Source of the DNA: Shigella phage ESh24 | Length of the DNA: 64,000 nt | Reading direction: 5' to 3' (one strand) | Sequence record: ON528734 | Shown here: one piece after another, positions 9,372 through 10,711 of the stretch | Layout of the letters: each line of letters starts with the position of its first letter | Numbering within the stretch: position 1 is the first letter of the stretch | Made by a program: the position numbers and the translations under genes | Notes under the pieces: model-generated | Databases searched by the model: none | The model's input: the letters and a program-made list of their open reading frames with translations, nothing else | What the model was told of the DNA's origin: nothing

Positions 9372-9932
9372 ATGATTAATAAAATTGTGCATGAAATGGC
9401 TTTAAACGGAGATTCATATAAAATATCTTCCGTAGTTGAAAATTTCATACTTAATAAAGTAAAAGAATATTTCACTGATTGTTCAGTTAGTTATCAAGAA
9501 AAAATGGTTTTAACCGATGATACCGAAAAATCAAATAATTTGTTTTGCTCTAATTTTATAACTAAGAAGCGTACTAGAAGATTTGATATTGTTATTTCTC
9601 GCAACGGTAAAAAGCATATAATTGAAATTAAACACCAAGTTGGTGGAGGTACAGCTATTGATTCGGTTGGAATATATTTAGAAGATAAAGAGAAATTAAA
9701 AGAATACACAAAAACTGAAAACCCTGTGTCATTGATGATATTAGATTTTTTGCCATGCGGATATTATCCACGTAATAAATGGACAAAAAGAGAATCATTT
9801 ACTGATAATCCAACTATCCAAGCAAGATTTAATGAATATGCTAAATCACAAAACGTGTTAGTATTACTATCAAATACATATGATGAAGAATTATATAATT
9901 CGTTTTTTGCTGCAATAAATGAGAGAATATAA
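9372..9932 (+). CDS. Hypothetical protein (186 aa) with PD-(D/E)xK-like motif, translationally coupled to dam
   Basis: GAGGA RBS; stop overlaps dam start (TAATG); segment [20 protein letters not shown] fits a D...E-x-K pattern. Confidence 0.75.
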
Positions 9933-10711
9933 TGCTAGGAGCTATTGCGTATACAGGTAATAAACAGTCATTATTACCTGAACTTAAGTCTCACTTTCCA
10001 AAATATGACAGATTCGTGGATTTATTTTGCGGAGGTTTATCAGTATCTTTGAATGTCGATGGTCCTGTATTGGCTAATGATATTCAAGAACCAATTATTG
10101 AAATGTATAAACGTCTTATTAATGTATCATGGGATGACGTATTAAAAGTAATAAAGCAATATAAACTATCAAAAACATCAAAAGAAGAGTTTTTGAAATT
10201 ACGTGAAGATTATAATAAAACTAGAGATCCTCTTTTACTTTATGTTCTTCATTTTCACGGGTTTAGTAATATGATTCGTATAAACGATAAAGGAAATTTT
10301 ACTACTCCGTTTGGAAAAAGAACTATAAACAAAAATAGTGAAAAACGCTTTAATCACTTTAAACAAAATTGTAATAAAATAATCTTTAGTTCATTGCATT
10401 TTAAAGATGTTAAAATTTTAGACGGCGATTTTGTATATGTAGATCCTCCATATCTCATAACAGTTGCTGATTATAATAAATTTTGGTCAGAAGACGAAGA
10501 AAAAGACCTTTTAAATCTTTTAGACTCTTTAAATGATAGAGGAATAAAATTTGGGCTGTCGAATGTTTTAGAGCATCACGGAAAGGAAAACACTCTTCTT
10601 AAAGAATGGTCTAAAAAATATAATGTTAAGCATCTTAATAAAAAATACGTCTTTAACATATATCATTCCAAAGAAAAGAATGGAACTGATGAAGTATATA
10701 TTTTTAATTAA
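9932..10711 (+). CDS. dam: DNA adenine methyltransferase Dam (GATC N6-adenine)
   Basis: 259 aa; DPPY catalytic motif and FCGG AdoMet motif; near-identical to recalled T4/T2 Dam. Confidence 0.95.

Follow-up and report, generated by a model that had tools for sequence, protein, structure and literature searches.

What is the gene that lies directly in front of dam in some T-even phages, and what does its presence mean for dam itself? The role and origin of the T2 and T4 dam genes have been unclear since the 1960s, and dam mutants are essentially without phenotype. In Shigella phage ESh24 (sequence record ON528734), of which a stretch of 64,000 nucleotides (nt), referred to here as the window, was analysed, dam is preceded by an open reading frame (ORF) encoding a protein of 186 amino acids (aa). 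A first-pass annotation of this DNA had seen in the ORF product the D...(E/D)xK pattern of restriction-endonuclease-fold nucleases, and had proposed that it forms a restriction–modification (R-M)-like or an anti-restriction module with the phage GATC methylase. The results gathered here suggest that the ORF, dam and an early-type promoter of their own probably constitute a self-contained R-M-like cassette of 1.42 kb carried by virulent T4-like phages. That the ORF product is an active, methyl-sensitive GATC endonuclease is a more tentative proposal, drawn from sequence comparison. The R-M-like half of the initial proposal is supported by the strict linkage of the ORF to dam, the co-divergence of the two proteins, the gain or loss of the pair as a single indel, the fact that the ORF is never found alone, and a catalytic core with distant similarity to DpnII.

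The ORF is a real gene under purifying selection. Its ratio of nonsynonymous to synonymous substitution rates (dN/dS) is 0.06 versus the homologue of phage Lutter and 0.19 versus that of Dhakavirus MX01, the values for dam being 0.04–0.10 with close and mid-distance relatives. Moreover, 154 phage records, that of T2 among them, contain at least 80% of the ORF by tblastn, mostly at 95–100% protein identity. In PHROGs, the 186-aa protein corresponds to phrog_8706, of unknown function (expectation value (E) 9e-116); the ORF is labelled as hypothetical or under a spurious name in the records shown, and a literature search for this ORF found no paper. In the T2 record (AP018813, 1501–2839), the ORF is labelled ‘head outer capsid protein’ and dam ‘fokI / modification methylase’, which look like annotation-transfer errors. 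The protein family is tiny and was detected in no group other than T4-like phages: among 1.84 billion representative proteins, a profile search gave 11 hits, and word-indexed searches gave 10–16, with P0016 (a 765-aa repetitive protein) and P0010 and P0008 (chimeric assemblies with only a fragment in common) set aside. In 72,556 plasmids, tblastn detected no ORF homologue up to E 10, PDB chain sequences gave no match at E up to 10 with either the protein or the family profile, and an NCBIfam scan of the protein returned only noise.

Within this small family, the residues E23, D72, E85, K87, H88, Q89 and the stretch G93–S98 (GTAIDS) are kept in 10/10 full-length homologues, and P118, S120 and D125 are invariant in 11/11 sequences. 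The 20-residue peptide quoted in the first-pass annotation covers residues 70–89, and its reading as a D...(E/D)xK motif was borne out: D72, E85 and K87, which lie on adjacent predicted strands, form a putative catalytic triad conserved in all full-length homologues down to ~30% identity.

The core of the protein is, according to structure prediction, a PD-(D/E)xK core, with the order helix / three antiparallel strands / helices / strand. An AlphaFold2 model based on the family alignment (predicted local distance difference test (pLDDT) 79, predicted template-modelling score (pTM) 0.77) contains a helix at residues 15–33, strands at 38–48, 66–77 (with D72) and 80–88 (with E85-x-K87), helices at 92–113 and a strand at 119–124, the acidic residue thus being placed on the second strand and the (D/E)xK motif on the third. 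Foldseek against the PDB ranked PD-(D/E)xK nucleases in positions 1–39, including VC1899 and AF1548 together with the non-restriction nucleases R2 endonuclease domain, Bax1, Can2, McrC and Mus81. In addition, the MX01 homologue has a separately computed model in BFVD, which superposes with a template-modelling (TM) score of 0.88; beyond this uncharacterised homologue, the structure search of BFVD gave only weak endonuclease-like matches. The nuclease fold suspected at first is therefore what structure prediction returns, and its leading structural neighbours are PD-(D/E)xK nucleases.

The presence of non-restriction nucleases among these neighbours also suits a different explanation, namely that the protein is an active PD-(D/E)xK nuclease unrelated to Dam methylation, for which dam is merely an operon neighbour. 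Such a nuclease could act in the degradation of host cytosine DNA, in repair or recombination, or in DpnI-like, methyl-dependent cutting of Dam-marked cytosine DNA. T-even phages are known to encode cytosine-DNA-specific nucleases, the denB gene adjoins the cassette in the Klebsiella Jiaodavirus KPV15, and an orthodox GATC enzyme would meet few obvious targets in a Dam+ host. This explanation is nevertheless regarded as rather unlikely.

The ORF is tightly bound to dam. Its TAA stop codon (9930–9932) and the dam ATG (9932–9934) have base 9932 in common, forming the TAATG overlap already described in the first-pass annotation, and the ORF/dam junctions of homologues consist of TAATG, TAAATG or overlaps of 7, 20 or 35 nt. 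In the T2 allele, which encodes 181 aa, a 1-nt deletion in a T-run alters the last residues and results in a 13-nt gap before dam. Wherever the context of a homologue could be read, the gene immediately downstream is a Dam gene of the D12 or T4 type; this applies to Lutter, T2, MX01, KPV15 and metagenome loci (L005–L009 and L016–L021; hits P0014, P0011, P0007, P0002, P0005, P0009 and P0003). Moreover, ~148 phage records hold the ORF and dam contiguously, and no ORF without dam was seen among the contexts read or in these records. The two proteins also diverge together, since ORF identities of 99, 64, 57, 40 and 30% are accompanied by Dam identities of 98, 76, 71, 61 and 53%. T4-like genomes carry the pair at three positions: in the interval from gene 61 to gene 56; in KPV15, on the downstream side of rIIB and denB and ahead of a topoisomerase gene; and, in metagenome locus L005, directly upstream of rIIA.

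The partner enzyme is well defined. It matches the Pfam D12 methyltransferase family (E 5e-51) and is ~98% identical to T4 and T2 Dam. The GATC specificity of T4 Dam is established and is also stated in a note of the T4 record, and that of the Dam encoded here is not in doubt because of its match to the sequence of the T4 Dam crystal structures (1YFJ and 1Q0S, E 1.5e-173). The locus combines what makes up an R-M system at the level of its genes: adjacent, putatively co-expressed genes, joined by TAATG here and overlapping or abutting in homologues, and a methyltransferase with an intact D12 domain and GATC specificity.

The comparison of the interval between gene 61 and dam among Tequatrovirus genomes reveals three states: ORF and dam together (T2, the window and ~150 records), dam only (T4 and vB_EcoM_F1), and neither gene (RB32 and RB14). 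In the second state, a 539-bp deletion has taken the promoter, the ribosome-binding site and codons 1–158, and what remains is the final ~28 codons, the ribosome-binding stretch of dam, and dam itself. The first-pass annotation had left open whether the ORF is conserved in T4; it is not, and T2 and ~150 relatives keep the gene. In the third state, RB32 and RB14 are homologous to the window as far as 9292. Judged by eye, homology picks up again at the promoter of gene 56 (ATTGCTTA, ~10714); an exact shared 12-mer is first reached at 10752, and ~40 nt replace the cassette in RB32. Since homology breaks at 9292 and at the gene 56 promoter, the unit of presence and absence spans approximately 9294–10713 and comprises the promoter, the ORF and dam. 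Thus, the cassette behaves as one unit when gained or lost, and decay can strike the nuclease gene and leave dam in place, as in T4, whose solitary dam is best read from these alignments as a derived state that arose via the 539-bp upstream deletion. This distribution (both genes, methylase only, or neither, and never the nuclease gene alone) would be predicted for an ORF whose product does harm unless its methylase is present. Two further records, ESCO58 (L014, 1201–1762) and ERS-1 (L015, 1201–1760), carry a frameshifted ORF with an intact dam, the frameshift lying after approximately residue 123 in the former and inside the ExK motif in the latter; these frameshifts may be true decay or sequencing errors.

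The sporadic presence of the cassette among close relatives, its clean indel and its occurrence at different intergenic sites in different genera also recall a free-standing homing-type endonuclease comparable to the seg and mob genes, which would cut cassette-less genomes in mixed infections and spread the ORF–dam pair, with Dam as cargo or self-protection. PD-(D/E)xK homing endonucleases are known, and the T4 record places the homing-endonuclease gene segF between gene 56 and soc, near the cassette locus. However, the homing genes known from phages are mobile on their own, whereas the ORF studied here never occurs without dam and co-diverges with it; autonomous movement is not what is found here, the mobile unit being promoter, ORF and dam together. 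Moreover, the 186 residues are all core fold and include no additional domain for binding to a long target site, the empty site of RB32 and RB14 contains no GATC, and the commonest variant has lost the nuclease and kept dam. Homing is thus considered very unlikely.

For the catalytic core of the ORF product, distant homology to the GATC-specific DpnII/MboI restriction enzymes is probable. MboI and DpnII sit in the PD-(D/E)xK superfamily (PMC2441816, PMC3424549). The Pfam DpnII profile (PF04556) matches the 186-aa protein with E 0.0045 and 16.8 bits, aligning residues 28–113 with profile positions 152–235 of 278; the same profile is matched by 5/11 family members (best E 8.3e-5), BanI is also matched by 5/11, and the PADLOC REase_II model gives E 8.3e-5. 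A DpnII-family profile (A5) was assembled from R.LlaDCHI and eight relatives (three plasmid enzymes and five database homologues), the route leading from a DpnM fragment in a PDB alignment to pSRQ700 and from there to the R.LlaDCHI gene, whose product scores 289 bits on PF04556. Alignment of the phage family with A5 by hhalign, a profile–profile comparison of the kind proposed in the first-pass annotation, points to core similarity over 92 columns (E 8.2e-4, probability 24%), in which E23 is paired with E165, Q42 with Q186, RRFD (D72) with RRFD (D210), IE (E85) with IE (E225), GGG with GGGG and T94 with S234. Furthermore, the ORF starts where the DpnII catalytic core starts. The phage protein and the DpnII/MboI/LlaDCHI enzymes share the PD-(D/E)xK fold class, the pairing with a Dam/DpnM-class D12 methyltransferase, a set of invariants that coincide in this alignment (the first-helix Glu, the Gln, RRFD, (I/L)IE and the GGG loop) and recurrent sub-threshold Pfam matches, while they differ in size (186 versus ~300 aa) and in the motif itself (ExK versus ExN). 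As a control, EcoRI, whose sequence was verified against the PDB, was aligned by hhalign in an unrelated region only (E 0.26, probability 0.2%), and homology to EcoRI, which the E-x-K-H-Q pattern of the phage protein had prompted, was rejected on this probability. As a separate observation, the Enterococcus faecium plasmid pVB3378_p2 (L025, 3340–4632) encodes a DpnM-like methylase followed by a 430-aa ‘hypothetical protein’, with no DpnII-family enzyme; this protein may represent a different GATC-linked nuclease family.

The absence of the N-terminal half of DpnII-type enzymes raises the question of whether the protein is a catalytically dead relic of an ancestral R-M system, or a domesticated non-nuclease, for instance a partner that binds DNA or acts as a regulator and tunes the expression or targeting of Dam. 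Phages can do without the gene, which has been damaged or deleted repeatedly, and translational coupling means that the ORF influences Dam synthesis, all of which would agree with such a role. Nevertheless, the constellation of E, D and ExK in all full-length homologues and the low dN/dS are unexpected for a dead enzyme, and the protein is similar in size to active enzymes, such as MunI with its 200-residue chain. A relic or regulator is accordingly held to be quite improbable.

The favoured interpretation, a GATC R-M-like cassette, would operate as follows. Transcription from the early promoter would produce one mRNA, from which the 186-aa nuclease would be translated first and Dam next by coupling. 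The nuclease would be a small, probably homodimeric (like MunI) and Mg2+-dependent enzyme with a PD-(D/E)xK type IIP fold, and would cut cytosine DNA at unmethylated GATC sites, as its distant relatives DpnII, MboI and LlaDCHI do. Phage DNA would be spared by Dam methylation of GATC and by glucosylation of hydroxymethylcytosine (hmC), so that the targets would be GATC-unmethylated DNA present in the infected cell, i.e., that of competing phages, plasmids, or dam-deficient or under-methylating hosts. Alternatively, the pair may be kept simply as a selfish module. Nuclease activity, methylation sensitivity and the biological target are inferred here along with GATC cleavage, the latter from the specificity of the partner and from distant homology. 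On this basis, it is conceivable, at somewhat less than an even chance, that T-even Dam is not an orphan in origin and that in T2-like phages it is the modification half of an active GATC type II R-M system with which the phage attacks cytosine DNA left unmethylated at GATC (for example that of rival phages, of plasmids or of under-methylating hosts), in the manner of chlorovirus CviAI, the nuclease having been lost in T4. The other half of the initial proposal, an anti-restriction module, gained no support: nothing in the fold, the conservation or the family matches favours a DNA mimic or inhibitor, and this option was rejected.

Several observations weigh against a GATC restriction enzyme of the DpnII kind. 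Firstly, the PF04556 score lies below the 23-bit gathering threshold, and the N-terminal ~150 residues of DpnII enzymes, including the invariant DSNxRKxRSG, are absent, so that the full-length architecture is not present; for these two reasons, the protein is not considered a member of the DpnII family. Secondly, the hhalign probability is only 24%, and K87 aligns to N227 of the DpnII family, i.e., the active sites are not identical. Thirdly, neither the exhaustive profile search of the 1.84 billion representatives nor a relaxed word-indexed search reached any DpnII member. The gene order also differs, being R-M here, with R first behind an early promoter, versus M-(M)-R in the DpnII systems read. 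Moreover, T4 and many relatives thrive without the ORF, and RB32 and RB14 without either gene; the ORF is plainly dispensable. The weakest point is biological: E. coli DNA carries Dam methylation anyway and that of T-even phages contains glucosyl-hmC, which leaves few obvious targets for an orthodox GATC enzyme.

In the lytic chlorovirus PBCV-1, a GATC adenine methyltransferase encoded beside R.CviAI protects the viral genome, while R.CviAI degrades unmethylated host DNA. As a functional precedent for the use of an R-M pair by a virus, this R.CviAI/M.CviAI pair comes nearest. It differs from the phage cassette in that it belongs to a eukaryotic algal virus whose host DNA is unmethylated, whereas the DNA of the E. 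coli host is already Dam-methylated. R.CviAI is a GATC-specific PD-(D/E)xK endonuclease, and is reportedly dissimilar to both the MboI and the Sau3AI family (PMC2441816). Among the alpha-class type IIP enzymes MunI and EcoRI, the E-x-K-H-Q of the phage protein corresponds to the EcoRI pattern E111-A-K-H-Q115, a match that may be due to chance, and the similarity of MunI to the phage protein is structural only; both enzymes lack detectable sequence homology to it, recognise AATT-containing hexamers and pair with other methyltransferases. Finally, T4 Dam is regarded as an ‘orphan’, and the Dam of the window is nearly the same protein, but dam is not solitary in the window or in T2. The cassette is of a familiar kind, a type II restriction-endonuclease-like gene beside a methylase, in a new sequence family and in an unexpected host, a virulent T-even phage.

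The first-pass annotation had assigned to the ORF its own early promoter and ribosome-binding site. The latter is in place as a Shine–Dalgarno GAGG. A promoter-like element is likewise present, listed in the promoter scan as TTTACT-17-TATTAT with TG, and falls within the block deleted in T4; however, a generic sigma-70 scan of the region found 12 sites versus 14 expected from shuffled sequence in this AT-rich DNA, which is not above chance, and the early promoter is thus no more than plausible on its sequence. Upstream of it, at 9247–9276 of the plus strand, ~160 nt after the gene 61 stop codon and within the antisense 66-aa ORF, a hairpin (ATGGCATTAACAAGTGCCAT) with a subsequent T-run resembles a terminator; it is kept in T4. 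If this hairpin ends gene 61 transcripts, dam expression would need the cassette promoter, and the promoter-deleted T4 would need read-through.

The window is a segment of a T4-like (Tequatrovirus) genome. Positions 9000–10800 are matched by 515 phage records, mostly of Escherichia and Shigella Tequatrovirus, and the full-length matches among those listed show 97–98% identity. The plus strand carries, in order, gene 61, the 186-aa ORF, dam, gene 56 and soc, with a 66-aa ORF on the minus strand after gene 61 (Table 1). In the segment 10757–11604, soc directly follows gene 56, and the intervening segF of T4 is absent, as in T2-like phages. The 66-aa ORF, which encodes a hydrophobic protein of phrog_2024 (unknown function) and corresponds to RB32ORF030w, has a 4-nt overlap with the gene 61 stop codon. 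T4 has it at high identity, although nothing is annotated there in NC_000866. Just ahead of this ORF, the minus strand shows a GATAAATA that resembles a late promoter (~9301–9310). Membership of the 66-aa ORF in the module was rejected, given that it is kept in T4, RB32 and RB14 whatever the state of the cassette; in addition, none is annotated beside the KPV15 cassette and none was called upstream of the L005 cassette.

Table 1. Features of the cassette locus in the window (positions of the 64,000-nt stretch of ON528734).
Feature	Position	Strand	Basis or remark
Gene 61, primase	8056–9084	+	
66-aa ORF, convergent with gene 61	9081–9281	-	
Whole cassette (promoter, restriction-endonuclease-like ORF, dam), ~1.42 kb	9294–10713	+	Present here and in T2; block absent in RB32 and RB14
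539-bp segment missing from T4 and vB_EcoM_F1	9309–9847	+	Same junction in both; ATC microhomology
T4-early-type promoter-like element GTTTAC-N17-TGgTATTAT, extended -10	9317–9346	+	Sequence; predicted
Shine–Dalgarno GAGG	9360–9363	+	8 nt before the ORF ATG; sequence
Restriction-endonuclease-like ORF, 186 aa, ATG start; phrog_8706	9372–9932	+	
E23 codon, conserved Glu of the first core helix	9438–9440	+	Kept in all full-length homologues
D72 codon, putative catalytic Asp in RRFD motif	9585–9587	+	Conservation; strand 66–77
E85-I-K87 codons, putative catalytic (D/E)xK	9624–9632 (E85, 9624–9626; K87, 9630–9632)	+	Conservation; strand 80–88
dam ribosome-binding stretch GAGAG inside the ORF 3' end, with TAATG stop/start overlap	9921–9934	+	Sequence
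dam, T2/T4-type GATC N6-adenine DNA methyltransferase, 259 aa	9932–10711	+	Pfam D12; T4 Dam structures
Gene 56, dCTPase	from ~10772	+	

The frequency of the presumed target site was also considered. No other 4-bp palindrome of the window is as depleted as GATC, of which 63 sites were observed versus 215 expected under a second-order model (observed-to-expected ratio (O/E) 0.29), the next most depleted being TCGA (0.63) and CTAG (0.68). In relatives, the O/E of GATC is 0.40 in T4, which has dam only, and 0.28 and 0.27 in RB32 and RB14, respectively, which have neither gene. The depletion was rejected as a sign of self-restriction: since the cassette-less RB32 and RB14 are equally depleted, it is a lineage-wide trait that is not tied to the cassette and is uninformative on the ORF.

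Taken together, these results suggest that the dam gene of T-even phages is one half of a two-gene cassette, whose other half encodes a nuclease with a restriction-enzyme fold, and that this partner was overlooked because the reference phage T4 has deleted its gene. This gives a testable origin for dam, namely a GATC R-M module with kinship to DpnII/MboI. Should the nuclease prove active, the cassette would count among the rare type II R-M systems of virulent, hypermodified phages, and would be a candidate weapon in phage–phage competition. In that case, the protein would also be a very small GATC enzyme of only 186 aa, and a possible reagent.

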